NCBI RefSeq assembly: GCF_024298765.1
Contig: NZ_CP101210.1
Length of the DNA: 64,000 bases
Origin: Escherichia coli
GTDB taxonomy: Bacteria > Pseudomonadota > Gammaproteobacteria > Enterobacterales > Enterobacteriaceae
Reading direction: 5' to 3' (one strand)
Shown: piece after piece, positions 7,381-63,685 of the stretch
How positions within the stretch are numbered: position 1 is the first letter of the stretch
Layout: each line of letters begins with the position of its first letter
Translations under genes and position numbers: made by a program
The notes under the pieces: generated by a model
Told to the model about the DNA's origin: nothing
Databases searched by the model: none
The model's input: the letters and a program-made list of their open reading frames with translations, nothing else

Positions 7381-8331
7381 TCAGCCTGCGATAGCACCAA
7401 CAACCTGTAATACTTCGTCACGCGCTTGTTCTGGTTTTTCACTGTCAAGCCAGTGAACCCCTTCCCAACCACGCAGCCAGGTTATCTGCCGCTTCGCCAA
7501 CTGTCTCGTGGCGCAAACACCTCGATAAACCATTTCATCGTATGAGATTTCGCCTTCAAGGTAAGACCACATCTGGCGATAACCCACGCAACGAATGGAA
7601 GGCAAGTCCGTATGCAAATCTCCTCGGGCAAAAAGCGCCCGGACTTCTGCTTCAAAACCTGAAGCCAACATCTGATGAAAACGCTGCTCAATTCGTTGAT
7701 GGAGCAGTTCACGGCTCGCCGGGGCGATGGCGAACTGATGCACCTGATACGGTAGAGCGTCTCCTGACGTTTGCGTCAGTTCCGTTAAAGTTTTACCCGA
7801 AATGAAAAAAACTTCCAGTGCCCGGGAAAGCCTTTGTGGATCATTTGGATGAATCCTTGCTGCCGCAACCGGATCGATCTCCTGAAGTTGACGATGCAAT
7901 GACTCCCAACCTTGCTCTGCCGCCTGTTGCTCAATTCTGGCCCGCACTTCCGGGTCCGCCGACGGTAGCGGCGACAACCCTTCCAGCAATGCCTTGAAAT
8001 ACAACATCGTACCGCCCACTAACAGTGGGATCCGCCCCGCCGCGGTGATATCGGCCATTTCCGCCAGCGCATCGCGGCGAAAATCAGCAGCCGAGTAAGC
8101 CTGCGACGGATCGCGAATATCCAGCAATCGGTGCGGCGCGGCGAGTAACTCTTCAGCGTTCGGCTTCGCCGTCCCGATATCCATCCCTTTGTAAATAAGG
8201 GCAGAATCAACGCTTATCAACTCTACTGGTAAAATTTTACGCAGCTCAATGGCTAACGCCGTTTTACCGGAGGCCGTCGGCCCCATCAAAAAAATCGCCT
8301 TAGGCAGGCTCGCCTTACTGATATCACTCAT
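7381..8331 (-). CDS. miaA: tRNA dimethylallyltransferase MiaA
   Basis: ORF track 316 aa; P-loop GPTASGKT; overlaps mutL 3' end by 8 nt. Confidence 0.95.
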
Positions 8332-10171
8332 CTTTCAGGGCTTTTATCGCCGGATGTAAATCAACAGATTGTAACAGACCACCCGGCGGCGTTTTCACAA
8401 GTTGCGGACATAACCGTTCCACGTCCGCCAGCAGGGTTATGGCCTGCGCCATTGACCACTGCGCATGTTCGCTCATCAGATTTCGTGCAATCCACTGCGC
8501 AATATTGCCAGGTTCGAATACGGACTGCTTCGCCAGGTAGCCTATCAGTTCAGGAATCAAGATTTGTAAATTTTGTTGGCGTAAGGGTAAAGGCACGGCC
8601 CTGATGGTCACATGCTGCGCATCGGACTGGAAATCAATACCCAATTCCGCCAGGGCAGACTGCGCTTTTTCTAATGCCGATTTTTCTTCACCAGAAACTT
8701 TTAGCCGCAGCGGAATCAGCAACGGCTGGGCGCAAACTGGCGCTTCACCCGGCGTCAGTTGCGCCTGACGCAGCCAACGTTCTGCCACTGGCAAGGCTAA
8801 AAGTGAAATGTTGCCGTCGCGCTCCAGCAACGCACAGTCGGAATGGACGATAGTCAGTACCCGACCAAAACTCTGACTGTTCGCCGCAAGTGCAGGTTCC
8901 TGCGGTTCTGGCGCTTTTGGTTTTTGCATCGGCGCGGGCGTTTGCAAAAGCTGGCGATACACTTCACCTTGCTGTTTCTGGTAACCTGGCTGCGCATTCG
9001 GCCAAGGGGCAGCCGGACGACTGCCTGAGGCGGGCGCAGGAGTGTAACGCGGAGCTACTGGCTCACGAACTGCCGGTTCAGCAAAATGATTGCGCCCCGC
9101 CGCCACGCGGTTTTCCGGGATGGCGCGCGGTGCAGGTTGTGGTTCATCGTCCAGCGGTAGCGGCGTTTCCAGTTGCTGTTGTAGCACGCTCAGCACGCCC
9201 TGATAGATAAAATCATGCACCAGACGCGACTGATGGAAACGCACTTCGTGTTTGGCAGGGTGCACGTTGACGTCCACCTGATGTGGGTCGATCTCCAGAT
9301 ACAGCACAAATGCCGGTTGCTGATCGGCCCCCAGTTTGTCTTCACAGGCCTGGCGGATCGCGTGATTGATCAGGCGATCGCGCATCATGCGACCATTCAC
9401 ATAGCAATACTGAATTTCCGCCAGTGCGGGCGTGGTGTGATTCGGATCTGCCACCCAGCCGCGCAGCGTAAGATCGCCGTGTTGCCATTCAATCGCCAGC
9501 GCTTGTTCGAGAAAAGCGGTGCCGCAAATCGCGCCTAAGCGCCGTTCTTTTTGCCCGCCTTCCGGCACTGCGCGGTACTGACGCACAATTTTACCGTTAT
9601 GCGACAGGTTGATCGTGACGTCGAAACGCGCCAGCGCAATGCGGCGAATAATTTCATCGATATGGTTAAATTCGGTTTTCTCGGTGCGCAGGAATTTGCG
9701 CCGCGCCGGGGTGTTGTAGAACAGATCCAGCACCTCCAGCGTCGTTCCCACCGGATGCGCCGCCGGTTTAACCGTTACGTCCATATCGCGCCCTTCGGCA
9801 TAGGCCTGCCAGGCTTCCTGCTGTTCTGCGATGCGTGAAGTGAGCGTCAGGCGCGAAACCGAACTGATACTCGCCAGCGCCTCACCGCGAAAGCCAAGGC
9901 TGATAATGGCTTCGAGATCGTCCAGAGAGGCGATTTTACTGGTGGCATGACGAGCCAGCGCCAGCGCCAGCTCATCTTTTTTGATACCGCAGCCGTTATC
10001 ACGAATGCGGATAAGTTTCGCCCCACCGCGTTCGATATCAATATCGATACGCGTCGCACCTGCATCGAGGCTGTTTTCCACCAGTTCTTTGACTACCGAC
10101 GCAGGTCGCTCGACCACCTCACCTGCGGCAATCTGGTTCGCCAGTTGTGGCGGTAAGACCTGAATTGGCAT
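8324..10171 (-). CDS. mutL: DNA mismatch repair protein MutL
   Basis: ORF track 616 aa; GHKL ATPase N-terminus ([23 protein letters not shown]); start taken at second Met. Confidence 0.93.
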
Positions 10172-27207: not shown

Positions 27208-28340
<1,133 letters not shown>

Positions 28341-28350
28341 GGAGCCTGAG

Positions 28351-29906
<1,556 letters not shown>

Positions 29907-58160: not shown

Positions 58161-58198
58161 TGTAAGCGTACAGCGAGGGCCGTATTGACGGGGATGTG

Positions 58199-59736
58199 TT
58201 ATTCAGCTGGCAGTGCTATGCGCCACGGAAGCAGTTCGCTGACCCGGTTGACCGGCCAGTCTGCTATGACGCCAAGCACATGGCGAAGGTAACTTTCTGG
58301 ATCCACGTCATTCAGTTTGCACGTCCCTATCAGGCTGTACAGTAGCGCTCCCCGCTCACCACCATGGCCAGAGCCGAAGAACAGGAAGTTTTTACGACCC
58401 AGACTTACCGCCCGCAGGGCATTTTCAGCGATGTTGTTGTCGATTTCCACCCAGCCATCGTTCGCATAGTACGTCAGTGCCGGCCACTGGTTAAGTGCGT
58501 ACGCGAACGCCTTCGCCAACTCTGAGTGTCGCGACAGGGTCTTCATCTTTTCACGCAACCAGCTTTCCAGGGATTTCAACAGCGGTTTCGTTTTTCGCTG
58601 ACGTTCAGCAAGCCGCTGCTCTGCCGGCATTCCCCTTATATCCGCCTCTATGGCGTACAACTGACCGATCTGCTCCAGGGCTTCTTCCGTCAGTGCTGAC
58701 GGGATGCGGACGTGCACATCGTGGATCTTTCGGCGGGCATGAGCCCAGCAGGCAGCTTCCGTTATCCCACCATTGCGATACAGCTCGTTGAACCCGGCGT
58801 ACGCATCCGCTTGCAGCACACCGCTGAAGCAAGCAAGATGAGTCTGCGGATGGATGCCTTTTCTGTCCGGGCTGTAAGCGAACCACACTGCAGGTGCCAA
58901 CGCTGACCCGGCATTGCGGTCATCACGAACATACGCCCACAACCGCCCGGTCTTCGTCTTCTTATTACCCGGCATCAGTACCTGGACCGGGGTATCATCG
59001 GCATGGAGTTTGCCGTCAGTCATGACATAGCCATGAAGCGCCTCTTCCAGCGGAGACAGCAGCCGGCAGCATGCATCCACCCAGCCCGACAGCAGTGAAC
59101 GGCTCAGCTCCACACCTTGCCGGCCGTATATTTCTGACTGGCGATACAGCGGGGTGTGCTCTGCATACTTCGAGGTCAGCACGCGGGCCAGCAGCCCCGG
59201 TCCGGCGATACCCCGCTCGATGGGCCGCGAAGGTGCAGGTGCCTGCACGATGGCATCGCACTGAGTACAGGCATGTTTTTCCCGTACCGTCCGGATAACC
59301 CGGAAGGCGCTACGCATCAACTCCAGCTGTTCGGCGGTATCCTCGCCCAGATAGCTCAGTGAACCGCCGCAGTTCGGGCAGCACGGCGCCGCAGGCAACA
59401 GTCGCTTTTCGTCACGGGGTAGTGATTCAGGGAACGGCTTACGGATGCGGGTCTGACGCAACGGACGCTGTACTGCGGGTCATACACCCTACCAGTCAGC
59501 GTATCGCTCTCTTTCTGAAGCCGGTTCAGATCGGCTTCCATTTGTGCGATACGGCGGGAGACTTTTTCGGAACGACTGCCGAAGTTCATCCGGCGGAGTT
59601 TATCCAGCTGCGCCTGCAGATGGTCTATTTCGCGCTCCCGGTTGCTCAGCTTTTCCTGCAGGGCGTGGATCAGCGCTTCCTGTTCGGCCAGGCGCTGTTT
59701 CAGCAGGAAGATGTCGTCAGAAGAGATGTCGTTCAT
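58199..59736 (-). pseudogene. IS66-family TnpC transposase, split by a frameshift
   Basis: N-terminal 126-aa ORF (59356..59736) and 420-aa ORF (58199..59461) overlap in different frames; together about 530 aa. Confidence 0.7.
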
Positions 59737-59785
59737 AAGCCCGTATTTTACCGGGCTTATTCTGTGACAACCAGGATAAAGAGAT

Positions 59786-60133
59786 TTACAGCATGGTCAG
59801 GGAGGTCAGCAGCCGCTTAGGCTGTCGCCAGTCGATACCTTCCAGCAGCATCGCCAGCTGCGCCTGTGTAAGGAACACTTTGCCATCACGGGCTGACGGC
59901 CAGGCGAAGCGCCCACGCTCCAGCCGTTTGGTCAGGAGGCACAGTCCGTCACCGGTGGACCACAGCAGTTTAACCTGACTGCCGCTGCGGCCCCGGAAAA
60001 TGAAAACATGGCCGGACATGGGATCGTCTTTCAGCGCCGTCTGTACTTTCGCAGCCAGGCCGTTGAAGCCATTTCTCATATCGGTGATACCGGCAACCAG
60101 CCAAATTTTGGTCCCGGAAGGTAACGGGATCAT
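59786..60133 (-). CDS. IS66-family TnpB (orfB)
   Basis: ORF track 115 aa MIPLPSGTKIWLVAGITDMRNGFNGLAAKVQ.., characteristic IS66 orfB. Confidence 0.8.
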   Translation of the reverse strand: MIPLPSGTKIWLVAGITDMRNGFNGLAAKVQTALKDDPMSGHVFIFRGRSGSQVKLLWSTGDGLCLLTKRLERGRFAWPSARDGKVFLTQAQLAMLLEGIDWRQPKRLLTSLTML

Positions 60134-60531
60134 CGCTTCAGTTCCTGTATCAGCAGAGTCAGGAGCTTTTCGCTGACATTGCCATTGAAGCGGAGCGTCC
60201 CGTGCCGGAACGTTACCTCACAGCTGATACTGAGGGTTTCCGGGTCCTCTGCGAGCGATTCTGGCTGTTCGGCAGCTGCATCGAGAGTCACAGGAAGTAG
60301 CTGGGGGCTCTCTGAAGAAGGTAATATCAGCTTTCCCTCGCGCCATTGTTGTCGCCATTTGAACAACAGATTGGCGTTAATGCCATTTTCAAGAGCAAGT
60401 TTTGAGATGTATATCCCGGGTTCACAGGAGGCAGCAACGAGCTGCTGTTTAAATTCGGGAGGATAATTAGGGCAGCCTTTTCGCCTGCCGGGAGTCACAT
60501 TTTTCTGCATATCTGACACTTTGGTTCCCAC
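60130..60531 (-). CDS. IS66-family TnpA (orfA)
   Basis: ORF track 133 aa, HTH-type N-terminus; first gene of IS66 operon. Confidence 0.7.
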   Translation of the reverse strand: MGTKVSDMQKNVTPGRRKGCPNYPPEFKQQLVAASCEPGIYISKLALENGINANLLFKWRQQWREGKLILPSSESPQLLPVTLDAAAEQPESLAEDPETLSISCEVTFRHGTLRFNGNVSEKLLTLLIQELKR

Positions 60532-60587
60532 TACTTATTTGAAGTGCGCCCCAATAGTTAGACACCAGATCTGTAACTGAGGAGCGT

Positions 60588-60943
60588 ATGAGCAAATTTT
60601 CATTAGAATTCAAAAGGGAAGTATCAGAAAAATACCTGGAAGGTGAGCTGAGTTTGAAGTCTGTTGGAAAAATGTACAATATTGACCCCAGCACGGTAAG
60701 GAAATGGGCTTATGTTTACCGTAAGCACGGATTAAAAACACTGACTGGGCAAAAAAGACGTTATGACGATAACTTCAGATTGAATGTGGTCAGAGATGTT
60801 ATTGATAATTCTCTTTCTATAAGGGAAGCTGCAGTGAAGTATGGGATCCCTGCTTTTAACACCATATCCAAATGGATTAAAAAATACAGTGAGGTTGATT
60901 TTTCGATGAAGGGACAAAAGGAAGATTTGAGGCCGAAAACTCC
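60588..60943 (+). pseudogene. IS3-family (IS150-like) orfA-type double-HTH transposase gene, interrupted by IS1
   Basis: ORF track 125 aa MSKFSLEFKREVSEKYLEGELSLKSVGKMYNIDPSTVRKW..; last codons derive from the IS1 left end at 60944. Confidence 0.55.
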
Positions 60944-60998
60944 GGTGATGCTGCCAACTTACTGATTTAGTGTATGATGGTGTTTTTGAGGTGCTCCA

Positions 60999-61274
60999 GT
61001 GGCTTCTGTTTCTATCAGCTGTCCCTCCTGTTCAGCTACTGACGGGGTGGTGCGTAACGGCAAAAGCACCGCCGGACATCAGCGCTATCTCTGCTCTCAC
61101 TGCCGTAAAACATGGCAACTGCAGTTCACTTACACCGCTTCTCAACCCGGTACGCACCAGAAAATCATTGATATGGCCATGAATGGCGTTGGATGCCGGG
61201 CAACAGCCCGCATTATGGGCGTTGGCCTCAACACGATTTTACGTCACTTAAAAAACTCAGGCCGCAGTCGGTAA
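60999..61274 (+). CDS. insA: IS1 InsA
   Basis: ORF track 91 aa [40 protein letters not shown].. Confidence 0.9.
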
Positions 61275-61696
61275 CCTCGCGCATACAGCCGGGCAGTGAT
61301 GTGATTGTCTGCGCTGAAATGGACGAACAGTGGGGCTACGTCGGTGCTAAATCACGTCAGCGATGGCTGTTTTACGCGTATGACAGGATACGGAGGACGG
61401 TTGTGGCGCACGTCTTCGGTGAACGCACTCTGGCCACACTGGAGCGTCTTCTGAGCCTGCTGTCGGCCTTTGAGGTCGTGGTATAGATGACGGATGGCTG
61501 GCCGCTGTATGAATCACGCCTGAAGGGAAAGCTGCACGTTATCAGCAAGCGTTACACTCAGCGCATTGAGCGACATAATCTGAATCTGAGACAACATCTG
61601 GCAAGGCTGGGACGGAAGTTACTGTCGTTCTCAAAATCGGTGGAGTTGCATGACAAGGTCATCGGGCATTATCTGAACATAAAACACTATCAGTAA
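61193..61696 (+). pseudogene. insB: IS1 InsB interrupted by in-frame TAG
   Basis: Track splits InsB into 61193..61486 (..LSAFEVVV*) and 61487..61696 ([12 protein letters not shown]..); sequence GTGGTATAGATGACGG where canonical IS1 has a Trp codon as I recall. Confidence 0.7.
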
Positions 61697-61837
61697 GTTG
61701 GAGTCATTACCTCCTCCCGAACTCAAAGCTATCATACAGATAATTACTGGTTAACCCTATATAGGGCATTTTAAAGTGTTGTGATCTTACCCAGCAATAG
61801 TGGACACGCGGCTAAGTGAGTAAACTCTCAGTCAGAG

Positions 61838-62143
61838 GTGACTCACAAGACAAAACAGTTTCAACCAGTAAAAAAACGTAAACAGCATTCGCCTGAATTT
61901 CTCAGTGAAGCCCTGAAACTTGCTGAACGCATCGGTGTTGCTGCCGCAGCCCGTGAACTCAGCCTGTATGAATCACAGCTCTATGCGTGGCGCAGCAAAC
62001 TGCAGCAACAAATGAGTTCGTCAGAGCGTGAAAGTGAACTGGCCGCTGAAAATGCCCGCCTGAAGCGGCAACTGGCGGAGCAGGCAGAGGAACTGGCTAT
62101 CCTCCAAAAGGCCGCGACATACTTTGCGAATCGTCTGAAATGA
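61838..62143 (+). CDS. IS3 OrfA (HTH protein); canonical ATG appears replaced, GTG start only
   Basis: ORF track 101 aa ..[57 protein letters not shown]. Confidence 0.65.
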
Positions 62144-63006
62144 AGTATGTCTTTATTGAAAAACATCAGGCTGAGTTCAGCATCAAAGCAATGTGCCGCG
62201 TGCTCCGGGTGGCCCGCAGCGGCTGGTATACGTGGTGTCAGCGGCGGACAAGGATAAGCACGCGTCAGCAGTTCCGCCAACACTGCGACAGCGTTGTCCT
62301 CGCGGCTTTTACCCGGTCAAAACAGCGTTACGGTGCCCCACGCCTGACGGATGAACTGCGTGCTCAGGGTTACCCCTTTAACGTAAAAACCGTGGCGGCA
62401 AGCCTGCGCCGTCAGGGACTGAGGGCAAAGGCCTCCCGGAAGTTCAGCCCGGTCAGCTACCGCGCACACGGCCTGCCTGTGTCAGAAAATCTGTTGGAGC
62501 AGGATTTTTACGCCAGTGGCCCGAACCAGAAGTGGGCAGGAGACATCACGTACTTACGTACAGATGAAGGCTGGCTGTATCTGGCAGTGGTCATTGACCT
62601 GTGGTCACGTGCCGTTATTGGCTGGTCAATGTCGCCACGCATGACGGCGCAACTGGCCTGCGATGCCCTGCAGATGGCGCTGTGGCGGCGTAAGAGGCCC
62701 CGGAACGTTATCGTTCACACGGACCGTGGAGGCCAGTACTGTTCAGCAGATTATCAGGCGCAACTGAAGCGGCATAATCTGCGTGGAAGTATGAGCGCAA
62801 AAGGTTGCTGCTACGATAATGCCTGCGTGGAAAGCTTCTTTCATTCGCTGAAAGTGGAATGTATCCATGGAGAACACTTTATCAGCCGGGAAATAATGCG
62901 GGCAACGGTGTTTAATTATATCGAATGTGATTACAATCGGTGGCGGCGGCACAGTTGGTGTGGCGGCCTCAGTCCGGAACAATTTGAAAACCAGAACCTC
63001 GCTTAG
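62140..63006 (+). CDS. IS3 OrfB (DDE transposase catalytic part)
   Basis: ORF track 288 aa with rve-domain motifs (..[39 protein letters not shown]..). Confidence 0.85.
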
Positions 63007-63019
63007 GCCTGTGTCCATA

Positions 63020-63685
63020 TTACGTGGGTAGGATCACTAAGCCAGGAATTAAGTCATTTAAAGATATTTCAAATTCACTGGCAATCGTATCTAATCCTTC
63101 CTTATCAATAGATTCAAGCCATAAATTATAATCAATAGGAAGAAGCAACGGATGAGTAAAGTTCAATCTATTTACTAAAGATGATTTAGTATACTCATCA
63201 TTACTTAGCTCTCCAATAAATTCATTATTTATAGAAACAGCATAGTTCTTTATATATGCTGCTCTGTGCAATTGTGACCATGCGATTTTAAACTCTACAT
63301 AAACCTTTTCAGTTTCATCTGCAATGTCTTTCATTTTTATAAAATGAATATCGAAAATATCACCAAGTTCTTCTAAATATGTTTTATATTCTACACCTAT
63401 TGTTTGTTCAGGATCGAAACCGATACCAATAGTAATTACATTATTCAGATCCCCATTATGGACTAGAGATCTAAATCCATCTATGCGCCTGTTCCCCATA
63501 GCTTCTAAATATATAGGATCACACTGCTCACGGTCTAATATTTGTTGAAGATAAAATAATGCAATTAAAATAGTAGTCTTGCCCGCGCTGTTTGGCCCCA
63601 ATAGTAATGTTACAGGTGCAAAATCAATTTCCTGCCGCTCTCTAACAGATCTGAAATTTTCAAGTACAAGTTTAGTTAATTTCAT
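63020..63685 (-). CDS. ABC-type (AAA_15/AAA_21-like) ATPase, N-terminal 221 aa; reading frame terminated inside IS3 right end (likely truncated)
   Basis: MKLTKLVLENFRSVRERQEIDFAPVTLLLGPNSAGKTT Walker A; stop codon lies within the IS3 terminal sequence; AT-rich. Confidence 0.6.
   Translation of the reverse strand: MKLTKLVLENFRSVRERQEIDFAPVTLLLGPNSAGKTTILIALFYLQQILDREQCDPIYLEAMGNRRIDGFRSLVHNGDLNNVITIGIGFDPEQTIGVEYKTYLEELGDIFDIHFIKMKDIADETEKVYVEFKIAWSQLHRAAYIKNYAVSINNEFIGELSNDEYTKSSLVNRLNFTHPLLLPIDYNLWLESIDKEGLDTIASEFEISLNDLIPGLVILPT

Follow-up and report, generated by a model that had tools for sequence, protein, structure and literature searches.

In a 64-kb stretch of Escherichia coli DNA (hereafter, the window), an IS3 copy with complete ends (61782–63036, + strand, 1255 bp) is bordered by 3-bp sequences that differ from each other, which raises the question of whether its present junctions arose by insertion or by later rearrangement. 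In direct reading, the left flank ends in TTTAAAGTGTTG and is joined to the IS3 terminus TGATCTTACCCAGC, and the right terminus, ending in CGTGGGTAGGATCA, is joined to CTAAGCCAGG (longer reading: CATTTTAAAGTGTTG joined to TGATCTTACCCAGCAATAG on the left, and ATTACGTGGGTAGGATCA joined to CTAAGCCAGGAATT on the right). A pattern scan of all loci compared gave the same placement of the ends in every copy. The terminal inverted repeats (IRL: 61782–61820, starting TGATCTTACCC; IRR: 62998–63036, ending GGGTAGGATCA) match at 28 of 39 positions, start with TGATC, and are the canonical ends. The boundary rule was validated with two controls, the canonical 1258-bp IS3 of strain A1.S1.65, which has GTA on both sides, and K-12 IS3B, which has ATC on both sides. 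The re-mapped flanks, TTG (GTTG) on the left and CTA (CTAA) on the right, agree with the TTG and CTA given in an earlier note on this DNA, and no identical 3-bp repeats came to light. Neither direct nor inverted repeats of 3 or 4 bp were found at the IS3 ends, boundary shifts included (the reverse complement of CTA is TAG). This mismatch is informative only because IS3 insertion normally yields a target-site duplication (TSD) of 3–5 bp (PMC10379815); two random 3-mers agree by chance in 1 of 64 cases. IS3 copies that have no TSD are not rare, as illustrated by K-12 IS3D (CAC/AAA). Among the three K-12 MG1655 copies that were checked (IS3A, IS3B, and IS3D), IS3A has an annotated length of 1255 bp, and the end-pattern scan did not pick up its left-end repeat.

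Based on its ends, open reading frames (ORFs), and sequence identity, the window element belongs to IS3. Two overlapping ORFs are present, orfA (61838–62143, + strand; 101 aa, GTG start in the ORF list; Pfam HTH_Tnp_1) and, in the -1 frame, orfB (62140–63006, + strand; 288 aa in the ORF list; DDE integrase core; Pfam rve, rve_2, and HTH_21). The canonical E. coli IS3 (IS3 family, IS3 group; 1258 bp) shares the terminal inverted repeats, the orfA/orfB layout, and the HTH and DDE (rve) domains, whereas the window copy is 1255 bp long, has a divergent orfA with AAG in place of the canonical ATG and a three-base deletion close to the 5′ end, and has no target duplication at its site. PGAP annotates the orfA of the near-identical XB2 copy as part of an intact programmed-frameshift transposase and that of most records carrying the variant as frameshifted. 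Alignment of IS3 copies gave 57 differences between the window and canonical elements over 1258 aligned positions, mostly in orfA (95.5% nucleotide identity with blastn), and no canonical tract, i.e., no mosaicism, was found in the window IS3. Near its right end, the window copy differs from canonical IS3 at positions 1173, 1198, and 1214, where the copy in strain ECC-1470 agrees with the window; over the full 1255 bp, these two copies show 0 differences. Matches of 100% identity exist in many genomes. At an identity of at least 99%, the variant type is found in only ~326 records; canonical IS3, by contrast, occurs in thousands and is close to ubiquitous. The orfA region (61782–62140) shows ~76% identity to canonical IS3 and 94–96% identity to some plasmid IS3-like copies.

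On the right, IS3 adjoins a truncated AAA_15/AAA_21 ATPase gene (63037–63685, − strand; codons 1–216 of 540; Pfam AAA_15), as the earlier note had recognized. The ORF at 63020–63685 (− strand) consists of these 216 native codons and five codons from the IS3 end, with the stop at 63020 inside IS3, so that the fragment encodes 221 aa compared to 540 aa for the intact protein. In A1.S1.65, the intact ATPase gene overlaps a gene for a 298-aa partner, lies directly beside hsdS-hsdM-hsdR, and is uninterrupted across the breakpoint (a stretch ending in CACTTTTATTACGTT followed immediately by CTAAGCCAGG). Using a 400-bp probe centred on the breakpoint, we found this region unbroken (ACGTT followed directly by CTAAGCC) in 257 of 272 complete E. 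coli genomes carrying the locus. The DNA missing next to the breakpoint amounts to 2247 bp in A1.S1.65. An integrase fragment, the 298-aa gene, and the distal 324 ATPase codons make up this segment, no part of which is present anywhere in the 64-kb window. Beyond the ATPase fragment, the window contains the 3′ part of hsdS, a type I restriction specificity gene that runs off the window (63694–64000, − strand; based on the annotation of the collinear strains ACN002, XB2, and FDAARGOS_1287), and in relatives, hsdS is followed by hsdM and hsdR. At the intact locus (positions 7636–10154 of locus L001), the ATPase matched the PADLOC profiles PDC-M55A (2e-40), NsnB (3.5e-37), and AriA (3.9e-22), and no Pfam or PADLOC match was obtained for the 298-aa partner. 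Together, the 540-aa ATPase and its partner beside hsdRMS resemble an uncharacterised two-gene defence candidate; in the window, this candidate pair is dead.

The left flank has a different origin. Exactly 70 bp (61712–61781) separate the end of IS1 (61711) from IS3, the distance given in the earlier note, and this segment is what remains of an omptin (outer-membrane protease) gene on the − strand. It shows 95.8% identity to plasmid omptin genes over 72 bases, and because those genes extend on both sides of the matched stretch, the 70 bp represent a gene relic trapped between IS1 and IS3 (annotated in RefSeq as a tiny hypothetical protein). Of 5426 complete E. coli genomes, 2064 carry the IS1F-relic-IS3 junction, and in all seven genomes examined it adjoins the fec operon (fecIRABCDE-ykiE-IS1F). 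The ancestral arrangement on the other side, with IS3 followed by TTG and the omptin continuation, is retained in no genome; the search yielded a single unrelated IS3 insertion in a plasmid omptin gene, ~200 bp away. The wide occurrence of the relic-IS3 junction, with no omptin continuation kept, shows that the left junction is old and widely inherited; it was imported with the fec-IS1F module. In K-12, the fec module is flanked by IS1F and has the identical fecI-ykiE-IS1F left junction that was seen in all sampled relic-carrying genomes, whereas the DNA to the right of IS1F is a different sequence with neither the relic nor IS3. Compared to K-12, the window has wholly lost fec, and all that it retains is the relic, IS3, and the right-hand portion of IS1F. 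Nothing specific was found in the literature on fec, IS1, and leuX.

Farther left, the region between 58 and 63 kb is a stack of IS scars, made up of ISEc8, an IS150-like element, a chimeric IS1, the omptin relic, IS3, and the ATPase stump. ISEc8 (IS66 family; 58162–60541, − strand; named from the annotation in relatives) has its left end, GTAAGCGTACAGC, at 58162 and lacks the last 62 bp of its right end: the ISEc8 of strain B771 runs 62 bp further to a terminus ending in GCTGTACGCTTAC, and the window diverges from it at 60541. Exactly where ISEc8 stops, an IS150-like element of the IS3 family begins (60540–60943, + strand), a 404-bp 5′ fragment with the left end and a truncated orfA (Pfam HTH_28 and HTH_Tnp_1) that is cut by the chimeric IS1. 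Its ORF (60588–60965) continues into IS1. In other records, the matched stretch runs from 60540 to 60943; the element is rare (73 genomes), and 71 of its 89 matches lie on plasmids. The IS1 copy (60944–61711, + strand, 768 bp) is recombinant: the left ~350–420 bp resemble IS1A, and the right ~350 bp are the same as in the fec-linked IS1F. It shows 30 differences from IS1F, every one of them within positions 4–420, positions 421–768 are identical, and the flanks (GAAAACTCC and TCCTCCCGA) show no 9-bp duplication. The IS1 of XB2 has the same junctions and another crossover point. The nine ATPase-junction genomes that still carry fec contain pure IS1F, which shows that the window lineage lost fec by recombination inside IS1, after the junction between IS3 and the ATPase gene had formed. 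The window IS1 also contains an internal stop. The earlier note had proposed that DNA between the IS150-like gene and the ATPase gene was lost; the loss itself is borne out by the absent 2247 bp, whereas a single deletion is not, because at least three separate joints are stacked here (truncated ISEc8 with the IS150-like fragment, the chimeric IS1, and IS3).

To the right of IS3, the relic-IS3 unit is combined with different neighbours. The arrangement seen in the window, relic-IS3 followed by CTA and the truncated ATPase gene, occurs in only 14 database genomes (ACN002, XB2, CH4804, 64.1, FDAARGOS_1287, N21, N54, five GPEC strains, and two OZ records); one of the five GPEC strains carries ISEc12 inside the IS3. 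In ECC-1470 and many others, relic-IS3 is followed by CAT upstream of a dGTPase-family gene. Four more genomes were sampled among the relic-junction matches, and the IS3 right end was absent from all of them (in three, just the left portion of IS3 is retained, and in the fourth, the left end is divergent and shortened). Strain cq9 pairs the CAT/dGTPase right flank with another left flank, ACT; its ATPase gene, ~16 kb farther left, is unbroken across the window breakpoint and is disrupted further along by ISKpn26. The cq9 IS3 upstream of the dGTPase-family gene (positions 28088–29344 of locus L012) is a mosaic, with canonical sequence at 67–98 and 1214 and variant sequence between, and it has no duplication either (ACT/CAT). 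In MINF_1D, the CAT/dGTPase flank occurs with no IS3 at all, and cdiB adjoins that gene.

Islands at three tRNA loci carry the ATPase junction: leuX (FDAARGOS_1287), pheU (ACN002 and the window), and pheV (XB2). A whole block, IS1-relic-IS3-ATPase fragment-hsdSMR-cdiI-cdiA, is present at all three (pheU in ACN002, pheV in XB2, and leuX in FDAARGOS_1287), which shows that modules were exchanged from island to island. At leuX, ECC-1470 and FDAARGOS_1287 carry islands that agree through the final base of IS3 and, further right, from a shared HTH-hyp-Gp2 backbone onward; their sole difference is a segment that starts exactly at the IS3 end. A nested deletion, in which the dGTPase junction would derive from the ATPase junction via a deletion through hsdRMS-cdi, was considered and rejected: the cdiB of FDAARGOS_1287 is not followed by the dGTPase-family gene, and the idea is also weakened by MINF_1D, in which cdiB lies next to this gene with no IS3 present. 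The order of the junction events cannot be derived from these islands because they are too mosaic.

Searches for the counterparts of the window junctions were negative. A complementary junction, with the distal ATPase sequence, CTA, and the IS3 left end (a stretch ending in ACGTTCTA joined to TGATCTTACC), would point to a precursor insertion that duplicated CTA or else represent the reciprocal outcome of recombination or inversion. Nothing covering at least 80% of this query was found among the 5426 complete genomes, and with a 3- or 4-bp duplication allowed for, it had no match in metagenome contigs, in which the window's own right junction, used as a positive control, was found twice. The second IS3 copy with complementary flanks that the earlier note had suggested looking for did not turn up in either set. 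Similarly, a precursor with relic-IS3 (GGGCATTTTAAAGTGTTG-IS3) directly upstream of the integrase fragment, hypothetical gene, and ATPase gene was not found at the one position tested; this search yielded only the singleton canonical insertion in A1.S1.65, which has a different left flank. A chromosomal inversion between the leuX and pheU islands was rejected, given that the reciprocal junction it predicts is absent from the 5426 genomes.

The two IS3 flanks are not the two halves of one target, because one is an omptin relic and the other continues into an intact ATPase gene elsewhere; simple insertion is thus excluded, and DNA was lost. The IS3 copy is securely a rearrangement joint with DNA loss, and its junctions differ in age and origin. 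The earlier view that IS-mediated deletion or recombination, not simple insertion, produced them is therefore upheld by flanks from unrelated loci, but not the implication of one event: the left junction is old and was imported with fec, and only the right one is specific to this island type. The right junction, between IS3 and ATPase codon 216, is the later one and is of the deletion type: through it, the ATPase gene lost its distal 60%, and the partner gene downstream was eliminated. The relic-IS3 left junction was inherited along with fec-IS1F, whereas the junction at codon 216 would have arisen when the IS3 right end itself was joined to a new target. We infer that this second step took place through an adjacent deletion by the IS3 transposase, or through one-ended replacement with resolution in backbone that the islands share, and probably not through a crossover inside IS3. 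The fec side was later swapped out in the window lineage by homologous recombination inside IS1.

We give a transposase-mediated route at the IS3 right end, whether adjacent deletion or one-ended replacement, about an even chance of being correct. One fixed left junction (in 2064 genomes) combined with several right flanks suggests such a route. As in adjacent deletions, the IS itself is undamaged, relatives share one of its junctions, and the other varies and lies inside neighbouring DNA. The scarcity of the variant IS3 leaves an independent variant insertion into the ATPase gene unsupported. The origin of the two flanks at unrelated loci, the loss of DNA, and the pair of leuX islands that part exactly at the IS3 end also speak for this route. 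The IS3 transposase makes adjacent deletions in plasmid assays (PMC8860574), and in the long-term evolution experiment (LTEE) populations analysed, all 14 IS150-associated deletions had no TSD and were explained as adjacent deletions (PMC11708052). For IS3 and IS150, both adjacent deletion and one-ended joining followed by recombination in shared backbone are on record (PMC8860574, PMC11708052). The window shares with these two systems an intact IS, one old and one new junction in a nearby gene, the missing TSD, and the loss of flanking DNA; it differs in that the window event would be historical and reconstructed, and another island or incoming DNA may be the source of the new flank. Several observations count against the transposase-mediated route. 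At the one position tested, no genome came up that has relic-IS3 and, downstream on the same molecule, an intact ATPase gene. Homologous recombination between IS copies is plainly active here (the chimeric IS1 and the mosaic cq9 IS3), and the CAT flank with its two left flanks is the mix-and-match pattern that is expected of crossovers between IS copies. In addition, the variant orfA sequence has no canonical ATG, and the transposase may have to be supplied in trans.

The main competitor, which we consider a serious contender although it falls short of an even chance, is homologous recombination between IS3 copies. Here, an IS3 would first have inserted simply into the ATPase gene, duplicating CTA, and a RecA-type crossover with the fec-linked relic-IS3 would then have left a hybrid element with the left flank of one copy and the right flank of the other, either by deletion between direct repeats or by exchange with island DNA arriving from elsewhere. 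The adjacent IS1 is proven to be recombinant, with a crossover point that varies between genomes, the cq9 IS3 combines canonical and variant segments, the CAT/dGTPase right flank occurs with both TTG and ACT on the left, and the presence of the ATPase junction at three tRNA loci points to frequent module exchange by recombination. Recombination between identical copies is also a recognised cause of missing TSDs (PMC11708052). Hybrid IS copies in E. coli islands share with the window flanks from different loci and junctions reshuffled among leuX, pheU, and pheV; such a hybrid can be demonstrated in the neighbouring IS1, whereas the window IS3 shows no sign of an internal crossover. Against such recombination, the lack of mosaicism would confine a crossover with canonical IS3 to the last 44 bp, to the right of position 1214, a partner of the variant type must itself have transposed even though this variant is scarce, and both the precursor and the reciprocal junction are missing from the 5426 genomes and from the metagenome contigs. 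Because a crossover between identical IS3 copies leaves no trace, the absent mosaicism does not amount to an exclusion. The non-mosaic IS3, the scarce variant, and the missing complementary junction nonetheless slightly favour a transposase-type event over recombination between IS3 copies.

The remaining two explanations have almost no probability left. Decay of a 3-bp duplication by point mutation after a simple insertion is a general possibility, TSD degeneration being listed as one cause of missing duplications (PMC11708052), but it is refuted by the continuity of the ATPase gene in 257 genomes, by the omptin relic next to IS1 as left flank in place of the other half of the site, and by the absence from the window of the distal DNA, including the intact-gene sequence to the left of the breakpoint (ending in CACTTTTATTACGTT). 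Similarly, a repeat-collapsed or mis-joined contig, for which IS copies are the classic sites, is next to impossible given that the same IS1-relic-IS3-ATPase fragment arrangement is shared by 14 complete genomes that were obtained independently, by different laboratories and from different hosts, and the right junction also occurs in two metagenome contigs.

The junction type is a known, textbook signature of IS-mediated rearrangement, with nothing outside the known kinds, and missing TSDs through adjacent deletion or IS recombination have been explicitly described (PMC11708052). Its importance beyond annotation is small. At this end, the island consists of piled-up IS scars and not of functional DNA, the annotated 221-aa 'AAA family ATPase' is a dead fragment of a 540-aa gene, and the fec iron-uptake module, once joined to this IS1/IS3 pair, is gone from the window lineage. 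The locus also serves as a worked example in which comparison of the flanks, beyond inspection of the TSD alone, dates the two junctions of one IS separately.

A broader reading, which we regard as improbable, is that the fec-IS1F-relic-IS3 unit acts as a reusable hinge, with the IS3 right end repeatedly capturing or swapping cargo between the leuX, pheU, and pheV islands. The cargo in question might be the type I restriction system with cdi and microcin modules on the one hand and dGTPase with H-NS modules on the other. If true, this would represent one-ended, IS3-driven exchange of island cassettes that here also inactivated a candidate two-gene defence module. The mildly interesting by-products of the analysis are this possible reuse of a single fec-linked IS3 between cargoes and the destruction of the candidate ATPase-partner defence pair beside a type I restriction system.
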